A stretch of 64,000 nucleotides of DNA, taken from a virus. Taxonomy: Duplodnaviria; Caudoviricetes. The notes beneath the pieces are model-generated. The model had not been told where the DNA came from, did no database searches, and saw only the letters and a program-made list of their open reading frames with translations. The translations under genes and the position numbers were made by a program. The stretch lies in IMG/VR virus record IMGVR_UViG_3300044991_001466; one strand, given 5' to 3'. This document shows positions 16,901 through 57,356 of this stretch, piece after piece; position 1 is the first letter of the stretch; the number at the start of each line of letters is the position of its first letter.

Positions 16901-16918
16901 AACAAGATATTTATATTC

Positions 16919-17020
16919 AGAGTTTGATTGGTTTGGTCGCCATTAAACGATAATACTTATAAACGAAAAGGAGGTGTTTTAAATCTCGACAAAGGAGCTC
17001 TAAAGGCTCTTTTGTTCGTT
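16919..17020 (+). ncRNA. Candidate small RNA E1 containing a 12-nt complement of the Bacteroidota anti-Shine-Dalgarno
   Basis: Follows late motif ATATTTATATTC (16907-16918); AAAGGAGGTGTT at 16967-16978; 10-bp hairpin acaaaggagc/gctcttttgt; no ATG; shares three blocks with 45171-45205. Confidence 0.45.
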
Positions 17021-17045: not shown

Positions 17046-17074
17046 AAAAAAAGGTCCTTAAAAAGGACCTTTTG
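17046..17074 (-). terminator. Intrinsic terminator of tmRNA (bidirectional)
   Basis: aaggtcct/aggacctt inverted repeat flanked by A and T tracts. Confidence 0.75.
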
Positions 17075-17468
17075 TGGAGATGACGGGACTCGAACCCGTG
17101 TCTTTCCGGTTCAACAATAAATGACTACACGTTTATTCAATTAGTTCTTAATTGACAAATAGAAGGTTAATATCAGGAAACCTACAATACTGTTCCTAAC
17201 CGGATTTTCAAGAGCCGTCAAGTTTGCTCCAACACTCTGGGGTTATGTTCCACCGAAGGGACTTCTGTTCCTAGGTTATATGTCCATCGACCCGATTGTA
17301 GTTTCGCCTTAGGCTACTGCTACGTTAGAAGTTGCAAGTAAACCTGCAATTTCCATGTTTGTGTAAACGTTTCCGTTTGAAATTTTCCACCGTAGATTTA
17401 AGTCATAGATGAAGTCTGACTACGTGCCATTTATCCCTGATACCTGAAATCAATTCCATGGCATCCCC
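17075..17468 (-). ncRNA. ssrA: tmRNA
   Basis: 5' GGGGATG pairs with 3' CATCTCC-A (G3:U70 alanine determinant); T-arm CGGG-TTCGAGT-CCCG; internal tag ORF. Confidence 0.93.
17309..17374 (-). other. tmRNA tag reading frame GNVYTNMEIAGLLATSNVAVA*
   Basis: Open 21-codon frame ending in VAVA-TAA after tttcaaac; resume codon inferred. Confidence 0.7.
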
Positions 17469-19892: not shown

Positions 19893-20815
19893 GGTTTTTC
19901 TTTAGGCCGAACGGTTTTAAAACGTTCCGATTCCACCACTTTGTTTTACTAAACAAAGAAAATAAAACACTGAGAATACATGTCTTAATGAGAATCTTTT
20001 AAACGGATTATTGTTTCCCGTTTGTTTCCACTACCTTTTGAGTAGTAACCCTCAGCGGCGGTCAATTAGATTAACCAATCCTAAAGTCATCAGATACTCT
20101 TTTAATACTCATTACTCTTCGAGATTGCCATCCCAATTAAACCTTATGAGTTTAGAGAACTTTTTTAAAAATCATATTGGGATTGAGTCCCTTTATGGCC
20201 GTGAACCCCTCACGACTAAGTAGCCACCTGTCTCCAATGACTGACGAACACTTTTTCTTTTATTTTTTTAGTTTTCACCATTGAAAGTAAAAGTTTGGTT
20301 TGCAGATTAGGAAAGTAGCGGTTCGTCGACCAGCCAAGCCACCTTTTGAGCGACTCGATACTAAACTACTCTCTAAGACATCCCTGCCTTCATATTTTTG
20401 GTTTCCTTCAGAATTAAACCCTTGGTAGAGTTTAATTAAGGATGATAACAGCACCACCTGTTTTCCACCATACCTTTCGGTTTTAAAGATACCATTATAT
20501 TGAACAACACAATTATAAGGTTGGAGACCTTATTTCTTGTAATAGTTCTACAAGTTATTCTTATTGTTCTTCCGAACTCAGTCAAACGACCTGCATCGCT
20601 TGACCACCAAACCACTTTCCCTACAGTGTTACCCTCAGTACTTAAGGTTCGATGATACCTTGCTTGCCTACTCGAGTTCTATTTCTAAAACCGCAATCTC
20701 ATTCAACCAAATGAAATTACTTTATCCCACTTTCATGGTTTATTTTGTTGACCATAGGCGGCCAATATTTTTAATTCAAAGAACTTTTTCTTTCGATAAA
20801 ACCACCTTTGTGATT
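19865..20815 (-). ncRNA. Large (~950 nt) structured non-coding RNA, GOLLD-like candidate
   Basis: No credible ORF, GC-richer than flanks, many hairpins, two identical UCAAAAG loops, TATATTTG promoter at 20823-20830, terminator at 3' end; family assignment not verified. Confidence 0.7.
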
Positions 20816-30831: not shown

Positions 30832-30864
30832 GACAAAAAATAAATGTATCTCTCTCATACATTA
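30832..30864. repeat. R1: ~33-bp repeat copy with inverted arms AATGTAT-N7-ATACATT
   Basis: gacaaaaaata-a-atgtatctctc-tc-atacatta; second copy at 42195-42228. Confidence 0.8.
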
Positions 30865-42194: not shown

Positions 42195-42228
42195 GACAAA
42201 AAATAGATGTATCTCTCCAAATACATTA
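42195..42228. repeat. R2: second copy of the ~33-bp repeat (ATGTAT-N8-ATACAT)
   Basis: gacaaaaaata-g-atgtatctctc-caa-atacatta. Confidence 0.8.
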
Positions 42229-42642: not shown

Positions 42643-43134
42643 TTATTTTTCCCCCTTTGTTCTGTCCCATTTAGCCGCTCTTGCTTCTGGTGACAAATGA
42701 AGTTTTTCGTCTATAGTGTGTTCAATTTTAACCCTAATACAGGTCTGAGGTGTCCTACAGTTCATAAAGTAGTTATTTATATAACCCATCATGTTTGCAC
42801 TACCAATAGGATTGGCTGAATGGACATAAATTTGAGGTAAGGGTATTTTAGTATTCATACTTTCACTTACCAAATATCTACAACAATCCATACCGGTTTT
42901 TTCATCAATGTTATTATAATTTAATTCATAATTATTTTTAACATTTGTATAATATTCAATCATAGCACCATCACCTAAATCGTGATCAAGTGATATAACA
43001 TCAAAATTTTCTAATCCATGTAATTTAATTTTTGCAACAAATTCATCGTAATTACGAACAATTATCCAATCATTATCCAAAGGCGTACGAACGTCATCCA
43101 AATACAATCTCAATTTATTATTAATTTTCATCAT
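42643..43134 (-). CDS. Cyclic-phosphate-processing receiver-like domain protein
   Basis: LYLDDVR.P, ISLDHDLG, KTGMDC, HSANPIG; adjacent to RNA ligase. Confidence 0.7.
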   Translation of the reverse strand: MMKINNKLRLYLDDVRTPLDNDWIIVRNYDEFVAKIKLHGLENFDVISLDHDLGDGAMIEYYTNVKNNYELNYNNIDEKTGMDCCRYLVSESMNTKIPLPQIYVHSANPIGSANMMGYINNYFMNCRTPQTCIRVKIEHTIDEKLHLSPEARAAKWDRTKGEK

Positions 43135-44158
43135 TTTTAAATGGCTTTGAATAATTTGGATATATAATTTTCCAAATATTTTTTTTATGTTCTTTTCCGT
43201 CTAACATGTTAAATAAAATGTTAGAGTGTCTATATTCTTTTGCTCTAATCGCAAACTCTTTTCTATCTAAATTTCGTGATTTTAAATTCTCATAAATCTC
43301 AATATAGTCCTTATTAATATTATCAAATCTAATAGTAAAATCCCTAATAGTTTCTTTAACCCAACCGTTAAATTCGTCTGGAACTCTTTCAAGTAATTCA
43401 TCGAACGGTTTATTGTCTTTCAAATATTCCCATATATCACGATTAGATATGTTAGTTAAAATTTTGTGAAGTCTAACATATTCTTCTCCTTTGATTTTCA
43501 TACGAAAACCATTCTTAAATTTAATTACATATCCCTCTCTGTCTTTACTAATTTCTTCTTTAAGTAAATCATATCCTTCTCCCCAAGTCTTATATGTCAT
43601 TACAACTTCAAATCCCGAATCCTGCGTCCAAAACAAACTACTATCAGGTATTTCTTCACCTGTTTCTGTATGAAAACCACCAATAACAACTAATTTTTCT
43701 TCACCTTTATAATCAACAACAATTCTATTTTCAGGATAAATAATTTCAAACAAATATGTATTGTCTTTTCTCCATGCACTGATGTCGTGTCTATCAAGAA
43801 TTTCTTTACCCTTAATTGCCTGTGGTGATGTGAATGATCCGCGTGTTGCCATTATCCACTCATTTTCATAATTAAAAAGAATACCTAATGAACCATCCAT
43901 CTTTTCATATACGACATAATCTTCATTTGGAATATCTTCTGGTTTATGTTCTTCGTAGTTGAAAAATTTCTTAAATGGTCGAGCAACAATATCACCTTTT
44001 GAATTTGTAACCAATCCACGACATTGCAAAGTAATCTCATCCCATAATCTTTCGTACTGAACTTTTGGACTATAATTCCAAATAGTTAAATCAAGGGTTG
44101 GATGGGTTTGTTTATGTAACAAACCATCTTTGTGGTATCTTTCTAATGTTTCTAACAT
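43121..44158 (-). CDS. T4 Rnl1-like RNA ligase
   Basis: CRGLV, KKFFNY, EKMDGSL (motif I), FEII, EGYVI, KIKG..Y. Confidence 0.9.
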   Translation of the reverse strand: MLETLERYHKDGLLHKQTHPTLDLTIWNYSPKVQYERLWDEITLQCRGLVTNSKGDIVARPFKKFFNYEEHKPEDIPNEDYVVYEKMDGSLGILFNYENEWIMATRGSFTSPQAIKGKEILDRHDISAWRKDNTYLFEIIYPENRIVVDYKGEEKLVVIGGFHTETGEEIPDSSLFWTQDSGFEVVMTYKTWGEGYDLLKEEISKDREGYVIKFKNGFRMKIKGEEYVRLHKILTNISNRDIWEYLKDNKPFDELLERVPDEFNGWVKETIRDFTIRFDNINKDYIEIYENLKSRNLDRKEFAIRAKEYRHSNILFNMLDGKEHKKNIWKIIYPNYSKPFKNDEN

Positions 44159-44403
44159 TACTTGATGGGTTTATAAAATCCAATATTGTAAGTCCATTTC
44201 AACCAATTAAATGACAAGTATATACCACATAATTTATTATCTAATAATGTTCTATGTGATTCTGGTTCACATGTTTCAAAATAAAAATATACAAAGGGTA
44301 ATGGGTATACAGCCCATTGATTTTTAAATAAACTTGAATGAAATTTCATATTTCGTTGTTTTGGTAATGTTGTTTTAAAATAAGATTCAATAAATTGACT
44401 CAT
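44158..44403 (-). CDS. Hypothetical protein
   Basis: ORF 81 aa, translationally coupled. Confidence 0.55.
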   Translation of the reverse strand: MSQFIESYFKTTLPKQRNMKFHSSLFKNQWAVYPLPFVYFYFETCEPESHRTLLDNKLCGIYLSFNWLKWTYNIGFYKPIK

Positions 44404-44832
44404 CTATAACTTTATTTCAAACCTATCCTTCATTTGTTGGAGTTTATTTTCGGGTACTCCGTGAATATTTTCATTACCATGTCTGTTTTCAACAACCACA
44501 CAATGTACTCGGTAATTATACCTTTCAGCCATTTCAAAATAAGTTTTCATTTCCCATTCTTGGGTAAAAGTATTTGCAACAACTATACGAGCAATTCCCT
44601 GTCTCATTCTTTCTGAACATCTAAATTGACAATAGTTATGTGCTTCTTTTATTTTGGTGCCATCAAAAATATAATCACCATCATCGTTAACAAAAAAATC
44701 ATCCGCAGATAAAACTTCTTGCGGATTATTATTTGGTTGTAATAATATAATATTTGCTATTGTTGATTTTCCTGAACCAGGAATTCCTCTTAAAAGTATT
44801 AAATCACCATTTATTTCATTTACATTATCCAT
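44404..44832 (-). CDS. P-loop polynucleotide kinase-like (AAA_33) protein
   Basis: LLRGIPGSGKST, SADDFF, VVANTF..WE, HGVP. Confidence 0.85.
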   Translation of the reverse strand: MDNVNEINGDLILLRGIPGSGKSTIANIILLQPNNNPQEVLSADDFFVNDDGDYIFDGTKIKEAHNYCQFRCSERMRQGIARIVVANTFTQEWEMKTYFEMAERYNYRVHCVVVENRHGNENIHGVPENKLQQMKDRFEIKL

Positions 44833-45069: not shown

Positions 45070-45114
45070 ATATAGTAAATATACGATTTTTAAATCACAA
45101 AACAAAATTTCAAT

Positions 45115-45216
45115 AAAAAACCCCAACGAGATGTCGGGGTTTAAGGTCTTTGGGTGGGTTCAACCCCACTTACTTATTAAAAAAACGAAAAGGTAATCGA
45201 CAAAGAGAACCTTCAA
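45115..45216 (-). ncRNA. Candidate small RNA E2, complementary to E1
   Basis: Late motif ATATTTATATTC on the minus strand at 45217-45228; outer stem aaggt..ctttg/caaagacctt; inner gtggg/cccac; terminator hairpin 45118-45142 with U tract. Confidence 0.55.
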
Positions 45217-45251
45217 GAATATAAATATATATGTTTTTACAAAAAAACAAA

Positions 45252-47273
45252 CTATTTATCAATCTTTTTCGTGATTATTAATTTTTGATCTTTGGATTTT
45301 AAAGTGATTTGTTCATTTTCAACAATGTTACCTTTCAATATTTCTTCACTTAAAAAATCTTCACAAAGATTTTGGATAATTCTTTTAATAGGTCTCGCAC
45401 CATATTCTTCTTGTGAATTTAATTCAAATACTCTTAAGGTTACTGATTTGTCAAAAGTTACCTTGTAGTTTTTATCTTTTAAACGATTATTCAATTTACC
45501 AATTTCAATATTGATAATTTTCTTTAAGGTTTCATCATTTAATGAATTGAATAGAACAACATCGTCAATACGATTTAAAAATTCAGGATTAAATTGTTGT
45601 TTTAATGCCTTTTGAATCATTGTCTTTCTAACTTCATATTTTTGAACTTCAGAAGATGATGTTGAGAACCCAACTCCACCACCAAACTCTGAAACTTTTT
45701 TGGCTCCGATGTTTGATGTCATGATAATTAAACAATTCGTAAAATTAACTTTTCTACCAAATGAATCTGTTAAATGTCCTTCATCTAAAATTTGTAATAG
45801 TAAATTGAAAACATCCTTATGAGCCTTCTCAATTTCATCAAATAAAATGACAGAGAATGGGTTATTTTTAACTTTCTCAGTTAATTGACCCCCTTCATCA
45901 TAACCAACGAAACCTGGAGGAGAACCGATTAATTTTGAAACGTTATGTCTATCCATATATTCGCTCATATCAATACGAATAATTTTTTCAGGGTCACCAA
46001 ATAAAAATTCAGCTAATGTCTTCGCCAAATATGTTTTACCAACACCGGTGGAACCTAAGAAAATAAACGAACCTATTGGTTTATTAGCGTCTTTTATTCC
46101 AACACGATTTCTTCGTATTGATTTAGATATTGTCATTACAGCCTCTTCTTGACCAATTACTTTTTCCCCAAGTAATGTTTCAAAATTTAATAACTTTTGA
46201 GTTTCTTTAGAATCTAATTTTGAAATTGGTACTCCAGTCATTTCGGAAATAATCACATAAACGTCATCAACTGATACGGGTATTTTATTATCTTTTTGTT
46301 TTTCAGACCATTTTATTTTTTCGTCTTCAAGTTTATCCATTATTTTTCGTTCATCATCTCTTAATTTGGCTGCTTGCTCATAATTTTGAGATTTCACTAC
46401 TTGGATTTTTCTTTCTTTAATTTCGTCCGCCTGTTTCTTTAATTTTTCAATGGATTCAGGAATTCTAGTTGAAATCCTTTTTTCAGAACCAAGTTCATCT
46501 AAAACATCAATCGCTTTATCAGGAAATTGTCTATCAGTGATATAACGACCTGCAAGTTTAACGATAGTTTCAATCACTCCATCTTCATACGTTACTTTAT
46601 GAAATTCTTGATATGAATTTTTTAGATTTTTTAAAATCTCAATCGTTTCTAATGATGTGGGTTCTTTTAAAATAACTTTTTGAAAACGACGAACTAATGC
46701 CCCGTCTTTTTCAATGTGTTTTTTAAATTCATCAAAGGTCGTCGCACCAATACATTGTAATTCTCCACGAGCCAATGCTGGTTTAAGAATATTTGCGGCG
46801 TCCATTGCACCACTCGCATTACCCGCACCAACCATAGTATGTAATTCATCAATGAATATGATAACATTTGGGGCTTCTTGTAATTCATTAATAATTGCTT
46901 TTATCCTTTCCTCAAACTGTCCACGATATTTAGTTCCAGCAACTAATGACGTTAAATCTAAAGACATAATTCGTTTATCCAATAAATTTGTTGGACAATC
47001 ACCTTTAAGAATCATTAATGCTAGTTTTTCAACTAATGCAGATTTACCCACACCAGGATCACCCACAATAACGGCGTTGTTTTTCTTTTTACGAGAAAGA
47101 ATTTGAGCAATTCTTTTCACTTCCTTGTCCCTACCAACAACAGGGTCAATCTTACCTTCTTCTGCAAGTTTTATTAAATCTCGAGAAAAATTATCCAAAA
47201 TCGGGGTATTCGAACCTTTCCTTACTTTCTTAGGGTTAACTGTTGGTCCATCTTCAAAAAAATCTACTGCCAT
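45252..47273 (-). CDS. clpC: ClpC-like AAA+ ATPase lacking the N-terminal repeat domain
   Basis: GDPGVGKS, FIDELH, GATT..E, UVR coil, GSTGVGKT, RIDMSEY, FDEIEKAH, GARP. Confidence 0.9.
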   Translation of the reverse strand: MAVDFFEDGPTVNPKKVRKGSNTPILDNFSRDLIKLAEEGKIDPVVGRDKEVKRIAQILSRKKKNNAVIVGDPGVGKSALVEKLALMILKGDCPTNLLDKRIMSLDLTSLVAGTKYRGQFEERIKAIINELQEAPNVIIFIDELHTMVGAGNASGAMDAANILKPALARGELQCIGATTFDEFKKHIEKDGALVRRFQKVILKEPTSLETIEILKNLKNSYQEFHKVTYEDGVIETIVKLAGRYITDRQFPDKAIDVLDELGSEKRISTRIPESIEKLKKQADEIKERKIQVVKSQNYEQAAKLRDDERKIMDKLEDEKIKWSEKQKDNKIPVSVDDVYVIISEMTGVPISKLDSKETQKLLNFETLLGEKVIGQEEAVMTISKSIRRNRVGIKDANKPIGSFIFLGSTGVGKTYLAKTLAEFLFGDPEKIIRIDMSEYMDRHNVSKLIGSPPGFVGYDEGGQLTEKVKNNPFSVILFDEIEKAHKDVFNLLLQILDEGHLTDSFGRKVNFTNCLIIMTSNIGAKKVSEFGGGVGFSTSSSEVQKYEVRKTMIQKALKQQFNPEFLNRIDDVVLFNSLNDETLKKIINIEIGKLNNRLKDKNYKVTFDKSVTLRVFELNSQEEYGARPIKRIIQNLCEDFLSEEILKGNIVENEQITLKSKDQKLIITKKIDK

Positions 47274-56425: not shown

Positions 56426-57172
56426 ATGAACAAATTCGGAACGATAAAATCAAAAATGTTAACTAAAATAACTGAATCTTATTCTAAACAAAATAAGAAT
56501 GAAGTTAAAGATATGTTAAACACAATTAAAGAAAACAAAGCATTTAAAGAAATGTATTTGTTTTATGAAGAAATTGAGAATAAATATTTCGAGGATAAAG
56601 AGATTGCAAAATTATATGTTGAGGGATTAAATACATATTTTGGTCAACCAATGGGTAATTGGAATGATTTAAATGTATTTTGTGAATCTCTACATGATAA
56701 ATTGGGTAATATTGAAATTGAAACAAATGAATTATATGAGTCTTTAGATATATTATCCGAAAAAGATTCATTATCAAATATTGAAAAAAAGGTTATTGCA
56801 AAAAAGAAATTAGTAGAACATTTAACAACTAAAAAAGAAATTAACGAGTCTCAAGAGACTAAATTTGTCGCAAACGAAAATTTATTACACGCTGTTTTAG
56901 CAAACAATTTTAATGTACTTTATACTAACACACTTTCTGAAGAACAAAAAGTTGAATTAAAAACAATACTTGATTTATCAAGTGAAGATTTAGAAAACAA
57001 AACGTCTGAATTAAAAGAATCAATTTTAAATCAAATTGGTAATATTATAAATGAATCTAAAGATTCTGAAATGGTAACCAAATTATCTAAAGTAAAAGAT
57101 GAGGTACTAAAAAAGGAAACCTCCAAAATTAATTATTACAGATTAACTGAATTAAAAAATGGTCTTAACTAA
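56426..57172 (+). CDS. Head-region hypothetical protein
   Basis: ORF 248 aa between portal and bS21. Confidence 0.65.
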   Translation: MNKFGTIKSKMLTKITESYSKQNKNEVKDMLNTIKENKAFKEMYLFYEEIENKYFEDKEIAKLYVEGLNTYFGQPMGNWNDLNVFCESLHDKLGNIEIETNELYESLDILSEKDSLSNIEKKVIAKKKLVEHLTTKKEINESQETKFVANENLLHAVLANNFNVLYTNTLSEEQKVELKTILDLSSEDLENKTSELKESILNQIGNIINESKDSEMVTKLSKVKDEVLKKETSKINYYRLTELKNGLN

Positions 57173-57356
57173 GACCATTTTTCTTTTGTTGGACATATAT
57201 CGCCTTCAAAACCTCTTTTCTTTTATTCACTGAAGGTTTAACAAACTCCTGTCTTGCTCTTAATTTTTGAACTTGTTTAATTTTTTGAACTTTTTGTTTG
57301 TAAGTTCTTAAAGCACTTTCGAGGCTTTTTTCTTTTGTTACGTCAATTATTATCAT
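57165..57356 (-). CDS. rpsU: Ribosomal protein bS21
   Basis: SLESALRTYKQK...LRARQEFVKPSVNKR; TATATTTG promoter at 57375-57382. Confidence 0.9.
   Translation of the reverse strand: MIIIDVTKEKSLESALRTYKQKVQKIKQVQKLRARQEFVKPSVNKRKEVLKAIYVQQKKNGLS

Follow-up and report, generated by a model that had tools for sequence, protein, structure and literature searches.

Positions 45108-45251 of the window hold a predicted small RNA gene, E2, and its upstream elements, all on the minus strand, between a ClpB-like gene (45252-47273, minus strand) and a small lipoprotein-like ORF (ATG at 45072, minus strand). The window is the whole stretch of DNA analysed, 64,000 nucleotides long; within a 129.7-kb viral record, itself ~39% complete, it occupies bases 16866-80865. 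Besides the ClpB-like ATPase, the window encodes an RNA-repair cluster and the terminase, portal and prohead protease, and it contains a GOLLD RNA, a tmRNA and four tRNAs. The parts of the E2 locus, in window coordinates, are as follows:

45236-45251, minus strand: T-rich element upstream of E2, consisting of TTGAC and a T-run in relatives and degenerate here
45217-45228, minus strand: E2 promoter motif ATATTTATATTC, with the late-type core TATTTATA at 45227-45220
45212 to 45108, minus strand: body of the E2 small RNA, ~105 nt, with ends predicted from the motif and the terminator
45189-45214, minus strand: hairpin P1 (AGGU/ACCU stem, 14-nt loop), from covariation and the minimum-energy fold
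45197-45205, minus strand: block 3, CUUUGUCGA, part of the P1 loop and the complement of E1 16986-16994
45183-45193, minus strand: block 2, CCUUUUCGUUU, in the P1 3' strand and linker, nearly invariant, complementary to E1 16961-16971
45171-45177, minus strand: block 1 (AUAAGUA), in a linker that varies among relatives
45154-45169, minus strand: hairpin P2 with conserved loop GUUGAA, of which UUGAA is invariant
45115-45142, minus strand: E2 terminator, a 10-bp stem and U-run, from the fold and covariation (45142-45118, followed by the T-run)

Other landmarks of the window, which also holds a second small RNA locus, E1, are these:

17072-17468, minus strand: phage tmRNA with tag ATSNVAVA, convergent with E1
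19967-20373, minus strand: full-length GOLLD RNA (Rfam RF02032, 298.8 bits), with the tmRNA and E1 2.5 kb away
42643-44832, minus strand: RNA-repair-like operon downstream of E2, with an AAA_33 kinase, an 81-aa ORF and two further genes
57165-57356, minus strand: gene for ribosomal protein bS21 (Pfam PF01165, E 6e-10), lying between those for the portal and the protease

The RNA-repair-like operon also encodes a T4 Rnl1-type RNA ligase and a protein with a cREC_REC (cyclic-phosphate processing) domain. Relatives of the phage are 270-334 kb in size. Huge phages of Bacteroidetes that encode bS21 have been described (PMC9723584), and the gene layout and the sizes of the relatives fit that group. 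The carriers of E1 and E2 are a group of huge freshwater phages with their own ribosomal protein S21. A scan of cellular genomes returned full-length E2 on three contigs (L258, L260 and L262), two of them <3 kb and all in Bacteroidota-labelled bins (Flavobacteriaceae, Chitinophagaceae and Flectobacillus MAGs); the remaining hits were chance partial E2 matches, with no E1 match in those stretches. The three are taken as phage contigs binned with their hosts and, if so, are consistent with Bacteroidota hosts.

The motif upstream of E2 shares its core with the structural genes. Because TATTTATA precedes the terminase, portal and prohead protease genes, it is regarded as a late-type promoter. Of its 47 copies, 31 are intergenic in a record that is itself 6% intergenic, and an ATG follows 3-38 nt downstream of 27 sense-oriented copies versus 6 in the opposite orientation. 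A sense-oriented TATTTATA likewise stands just upstream of E2, marking a late transcription unit whose timing is read from the genes that share the motif. Within the E2 motif, ATTTAT is invariant in 58 aligned relatives. Upstream of the bS21 gene, which has no Shine-Dalgarno (SD) sequence, TATATTTG resembles a host-type -7 box rather than the late motif.

The T-rich element is a second conserved part of the E2 upstream region. T7-T10 and TTGAC are nearly invariant in columns 1-20 of alignment A1, and the upstream region of E1 has no equivalent. The element is possibly a -35/-33-like box. The spacing at E2, with TTGAC and the T-run ~16 nt upstream of TATATT, makes a sigma-70-like arrangement, which could start E2 earlier than E1. 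Another box, the conserved TCGTATATTTAC at 45076-45090 (minus strand), lies ~8 nt before the ATG of the lipoprotein-like ORF and resembles a second promoter with an almost leaderless message.

E2 is conserved in 66 of 80 loci of relatives, a set later extended to 155 loci. Conservation begins at the upstream T-rich element, takes in the motif and ends with the terminator, and the spacer beyond varies freely. Where some relatives have a gene inserted after ClpB, E2 remains with the downstream gene. The consensus fold comprises three hairpins (P1, P2 and the terminator), with compensatory changes at 14 of 21 predicted pairs, and the single-sequence fold agrees with it (z = -3.0). In P1, a UA pair is replaced by AU and by CG, and a GC pair by AU; in P2, one pair shows a double compensatory change in up to 12 sequences. 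The P1 loop UCUUUGYCGA is nearly invariant among relatives. An 18-codon TTG frame within E2 was considered as a peptide of 18 aa and rejected, its start being unconserved and the frame broken by indels that are not multiples of 3.

Known families do not account for the locus. An Rfam 15 scan of the window at gathering thresholds returned GOLLD, tmRNA and tRNAs only, with no family at E2 or E1, and E-value scans of the E1 and E2 loci gave best matches of <=21 bits against thresholds of 34-285 bits. In a phage collection, BLAST gave no match for either locus. Metatranscriptome contigs cover the neighbouring genes in relatives and not E2; such contigs are uninformative for small RNAs, strand or ends. 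E2 is a new conserved small RNA family and, as the original prediction held, a stand-alone unit with its own terminator; its transcription is presumed.

The second locus, E1, lies on the opposite strand near the start of the window:

16907-16918, plus strand: E1 promoter motif ATATTTATATTC, with TATTTAT invariant in 22 sequences
16919-17016, plus strand: body of the E1 small RNA, a conserved family (fold z = -3.1)
16922-16948, plus strand: 5' hairpin, covarying, with invariant loop UUGGUCG, from the alignment of relatives
16961-16971, plus strand: block 2 (AAACGAAAAGG), single-stranded in the fold, overlapping the 5' part of the SD-like box
16967-16976, plus strand: SD-like box AAAGGAGGUG, its 5' part overlapped by block 2
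16986-16994, plus strand: block 3 (UCGACAAAG), mostly in the 5' strand of E1's own terminal hairpin
16988-17016, plus strand: terminal hairpin, whose 5' strand includes block 3

The middle of E1 is single-stranded in the fold and holds AAACGAAAAGGAGGUR. The family was assembled from 59 loci at first and 12 more later. About 40 homologues came from a DNA pattern and further ones from profile searches; about a third of the 64 pattern matches were unrelated sequences without the E1 blocks. Homology to distant relatives begins at about 16905-16906, just before the E1 motif; for the 313-aa gene that precedes E1, no relatives were found. A hairpin and the tmRNA 3' end follow E1 in many relatives, and a late gene does so in others. 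Several long records that carry E2 (G046, G043, G044 and G004) yielded no E1 among 108 candidates scored; its expected place lies beyond the contig end in each, and the result does not indicate that E1 is absent.

No conserved ORF was found in E1, with neither a start, an AUG nor a stop conserved among relatives. A type I toxin-antitoxin system was rejected, as a conserved small hydrophobic ORF is absent from both E1 and E2. Relatives do not conserve the E1 segment AGAGTTTGAT, and its likeness to the start of 16S is probably due to chance.

The two loci share short sequences in this genome. On the plus strand, TACTTAT occurs at 16954 and 45171, the 11-mer AAACGAAAAGG at 16961 and 45183, and the 9-mer TCGACAAAG at 16986 and 45197; ATATTTATATTC has a single plus-strand copy at 16907 and a single minus-strand copy at 45228-45217. 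The original prediction had located all three blocks correctly, as well as the 12-mer common to both loci and the terminator on the minus strand. Its reading of the orientation also holds, since the motif points to genes in sense and therefore on the plus strand into E1 and on the minus strand into E2. The 'similar outer stems' that it described are not found, the hairpins of E1 and E2 differing in both sequence and layout. The 11-mer and 9-mer have no third site on either strand of the 129.7-kb record, occurring in E1 and E2 only, and an nhmmer search of the window returned one E1, one E2 and no further copies. With one copy of each unit in the window and the blocks only twice in the record, a dispersed DNA repeat or mobile element was rejected.

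Within this one genome, the similarity of E1 and E2 is at chance level. Their gapped local alignment scores 32, which equals the mean best non-self match of 400 random 71-mers, and 49% of such 71-mers reach >=32 in their best non-self alignment. The genome holds ~600 collinear 11+9 chains. The similarity becomes notable only when the comparison is restricted to orphan promoter-to-terminator units, of which there are few, and the within-genome alignment and block-chain statistics are not counted as support for a relationship. That chains of this size are common genome-wide instead favours a different account, in which E1 and E2 are unrelated functional small RNAs whose chance complementarity is kept by separate purifying selection on both blocks, acting through each RNA's own structure, a protein or a host target. 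Against this account, E1 is the top predicted E2 target in the record: when the E2 5' part was scored with RNAduplex over 17,290 windows, E1 ranked first among the non-self partners. A stronger similarity than that of E1 and E2 joins R1 and R2 (30832-30856 and 42195-42219, plus strand), a 23-nt repeat GACAAAAAATA[A/G]ATGTATCTCTC with one mismatch.

Relatives provide the comparison that a single genome cannot. Same-genome pairs of E1 and E2 number 42, of which 32 are distinct; 23 distinct pairs were tabulated for the extent of pairing. The distance between the loci is 28 kb here and 4-24 kb in relatives, and a cis-antisense pair, which would need transcripts that overlap at one locus, was rejected accordingly. 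They are always in opposite directions, and on opposite strands in relatives with both in one locus. E1 and E2 are thus two separate units on opposite strands, with transcripts predicted to be complementary over 11 + 9(10) nt. Of the 23 tabulated pairs, 22 (all but one lineage) allow 9-16 bp of pairing in block 2, and 21 allow 8-12 bp in block 3. The original prediction had counted 7+11+9 complementary nucleotides; the 11-nt and 9-nt blocks stand, and the 7-nt block falls away, as block 1 is not conserved and its E1 partner is retained in the closest relatives only.

Changes in the two RNAs are partly matched. One position alone varies in the E2 loop (Y), and it lies opposite the main variable position of E1 block 3 (R); among the 32 distinct pairs the two states combine as A-U in 11, G.U in 6, G-C in 13 and A.C in 2 (Fisher p = 0.0046, an association to which joint AT-to-GC drift could add). 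Most changes lie along the path from A-U through G.U to G-C. In block 2, E1 of L167 has AGAA opposite UUUU in E2, a G.U pair, and in L164/L150, a 97%-identical relative, E2 reads UUCU, an exact compensation to G-C. A C-to-U change in E1 of L251 yields a U.G pair. In the L225 and L212 clades one nucleotide of the A/U run is lost in both RNAs, and in L050, of an L212-like clade, U is again opposite the A of E1.

Cognate partners also fit each other better than partners drawn from other genomes. The cognate duplex energy is -29.5 kcal/mol versus -26.0 kcal/mol for permuted pairs, with 0 of 50,000 permutations as good, and block 2 alone and block 3 alone are each significant. Cognate pairs are still better with permutation within clades only, the clades being set by the 3' part of E2 that does not pair (P = 0.0006-0.004); neither form of permutation fully removes shared ancestry. 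Compensatory covariation between E1 and E2, which the original prediction had proposed as a check, is therefore found in relatives: complementarity is kept, and partly compensated, across 32 distinct genomes, with exceptions in two clades. In L212/L237, block 3 pairing drops to 6 bp, and in L148/L249 block 2 contains an uncompensated A.C.

On this evidence, E1 and E2 probably pair, given complementarity kept across 32 distinct phage genomes, and the favoured reading, with a probability of roughly 60%, is that they pair in trans as co-inherited late small RNAs of a huge Bacteroidota phage. The matched changes speak against unrelated RNAs: variable positions of the two fall opposite each other in the pairing register, their states favour A-U, G.U and G-C, block 2 has an exact compensatory change, and cognate pairs do better than permuted ones, even within clades. 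The account of chance complementarity nevertheless draws on the exceptions in L212/L237 and L148/L249, on conserved parts of E2 that have no E1 match, and on two structural points. First, block 3 of E1 is constrained by E1's own hairpin; because it forms the 5' strand of that stem, it is not freely available. The E1 terminal stem covaries internally in alignment A3 (G84/C113 of the first sequence becomes A/T in L212/L237), coinciding with the clade where E2 pairing drops. Second, the cofold gain is no better than in controls: with intramolecular structure allowed, the heterodimer gains -6.9 kcal/mol, a value equalled by 19.5% of shuffled controls, and the minimum-energy dimer uses blocks 1 and 2 while block 3 stays in E1's own stem. 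The duplex-only energy of E1 and E2 is better than that of shuffles. Overall, selection acting separately on two unrelated RNAs is judged a rather unlikely explanation.

The shared blocks could also be a DNA-level element, such as two direct copies of the sites of one DNA-binding protein or of a recombination repeat. The blocks are indeed direct repeats on one strand, and two DNA sites that changed together would leave the same pattern. However, there are two copies only, they sit inside two different structured transcription units with covarying stems, and the mismatches between them are mostly of the G.U type, which is relevant to RNA only. Blocks of 9-11 bp are, moreover, too short for gene conversion. 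A DNA-level origin therefore appears very improbable.

Pairing in trans suggests a mechanism. E2 would be transcribed on the minus strand from the late-type TATTTATA promoter and end at an intrinsic terminator of its own. Pairing with E1 would involve the exposed parts of E2 that are conserved best, namely the P1 loop UCUUUGYCGA and, directly after it, CCUUUUCGUUU. The first contact most likely joins the single-stranded A-rich AAACGAAAA of E1 to the U-rich UUUUCGUUU of E2 (block 2), and the duplex may then extend into the 5' half of E1's Shine-Dalgarno-like box; in agreement with the original prediction, the predicted duplex spans this half. A second contact is predicted between the E2 loop and the 5' strand of the E1 terminal hairpin, where the E2 loop could replace the 3' strand of that hairpin because the two sequences are nearly identical. 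The outcome may be that E2 masks E1, or alters its stability or 3'-end formation, or the reverse, in the manner of an sRNA and its anti-sRNA.

Pairing with E1 does not account for all of E2. Conservation of the P2 loop and of the GAAAGACCUUAAA linker equals that of the blocks and is not explained by E1, so E2 very likely has another partner. A stronger form of this idea places the main target elsewhere, in a host or phage mRNA, the 16S 3' tail or the ribosome, with E1 as a mimic or side target, or makes E2 a protein-binding RNA. The invariant yet unexplained P2 loop GUUGAA and linker lend it some weight, as does the resemblance of E2 block 2 (ACCUUUUCG) to the F. johnsoniae 16S tail ACCUCCUUUCU without its central CC (oligo: PMC7797042). 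Against it, the blocks have no other perfect complement in the 129.7-kb record, and the presence of full-length E2 in cellular assemblies is confined to the three contigs in Bacteroidota-labelled bins. A main target other than E1 is accordingly considered quite unlikely, and it would in any case be compatible with E1 pairing.

Known antisense RNAs offer partial parallels to pairing between E2 and E1. To our knowledge, phage small RNAs have been studied mostly in temperate enterobacterial phages, and we know of no Hfq-type sRNA biology in the host phylum Bacteroidota. The c4 antisense RNA reportedly acts through two sites. It belongs to phages P1 and P7 and acts on the icd-ant mRNA (PMC12197685). 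Like E2, c4 is phage-encoded and ~77-100 nt long. It acts in trans via two short, separate complementary stretches of a structured RNA, with one stretch lying over a ribosome-binding site; the same is predicted for E2. In contrast, c4 and its target share one operon of a temperate phage, whereas the E1 and E2 loci lie 4-28 kb apart and each has its own late promoter and terminator. Whereas c4 targets an mRNA, E1 lacks a conserved ORF; the E2 phage is a huge T4-like phage, and E2 has no sequence or Rfam similarity to c4. The OxyS-fhlA complex, said to be a two-site kissing complex, also resembles E2-E1 in using two short pairings (7-9 bp) between sRNA loops and two sites that flank or cover the SD. 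It is bacterial, has an mRNA target and is experimentally verified, whereas E1-E2 pairing is predicted.

A closer match in the kind of target comes from the EHEC prophage anti-sRNAs AgvB and AsxR, which target the host sRNAs GcvB and FnrS (PMC12197685, on Tree et al. 2014). These, like E2 as predicted, are phage-encoded small RNAs that target another small RNA. AsxR binds the FnrS terminator stem-loop (PMC12197685), much as block 3 of E2 is predicted to bind the 5' strand of the E1 terminal hairpin; the predicted effect on E1, a change in stability or in 3'-end formation, would resemble that of AsxR on FnrS. Unlike these Hfq-dependent RNAs with host sRNA targets, E1 and E2 are both phage-encoded and co-inherited, with a Bacteroidota host and no known chaperone. 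A widespread group of huge freshwater phages carries two co-inherited small RNA genes that are apparently co-evolving as a pair; if true, this would be an sRNA/anti-sRNA circuit encoded wholly by a large phage of virulent type.

The SD-like box of E1 raises the question of what E1 itself might do. In Bacteroidia, bS21 hides the 16S tail. An extended SD is read only by ribosomes lacking bS21 and serves the host in restoring its supply of the protein (rpsU of Flavobacteriales, in bS21 autoregulation) (PMC9976891). An SD oligo has been used against the F. johnsoniae 16S tail (PMC7797042), and AAAGGAGGU of E1 is the same 9 nt. Unlike Flavobacteriales rpsU with its extended SD, E1 has no conserved ORF or AUG. 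E1 thus has a perfect extended SD box, of a kind that these hosts normally ignore, and bS21 is among the proteins of the phage; the pair of E1 and E2 therefore gives a testable handle on phage takeover of translation. Conceivably, the pair forms a switch on the host's free anti-SD tail, with the gene-less, extended-SD E1 as a decoy and E2 controlling E1, an idea that is unlikely as it stands. E1 would then occupy bS21-free 30S subunits, or keep host rpsU from being translated, as the phage puts its own bS21 in place, and E2, by covering the 5' half of E1's SD, would set when or how much E1 acts. Any link of E1 and E2 with the anti-SD or bS21 is, at this stage, a hypothesis.

Members of a distant clade (L149:1444-1561, L150:1502-1622, L167, L169, L170, L173 and L178) carry a tandem duplication of the AAACGAAAA block in E1, which would therefore offer two alternative landing sites for E2. 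Which of the duplicated copies matches E2 differs among the genomes of the clade.
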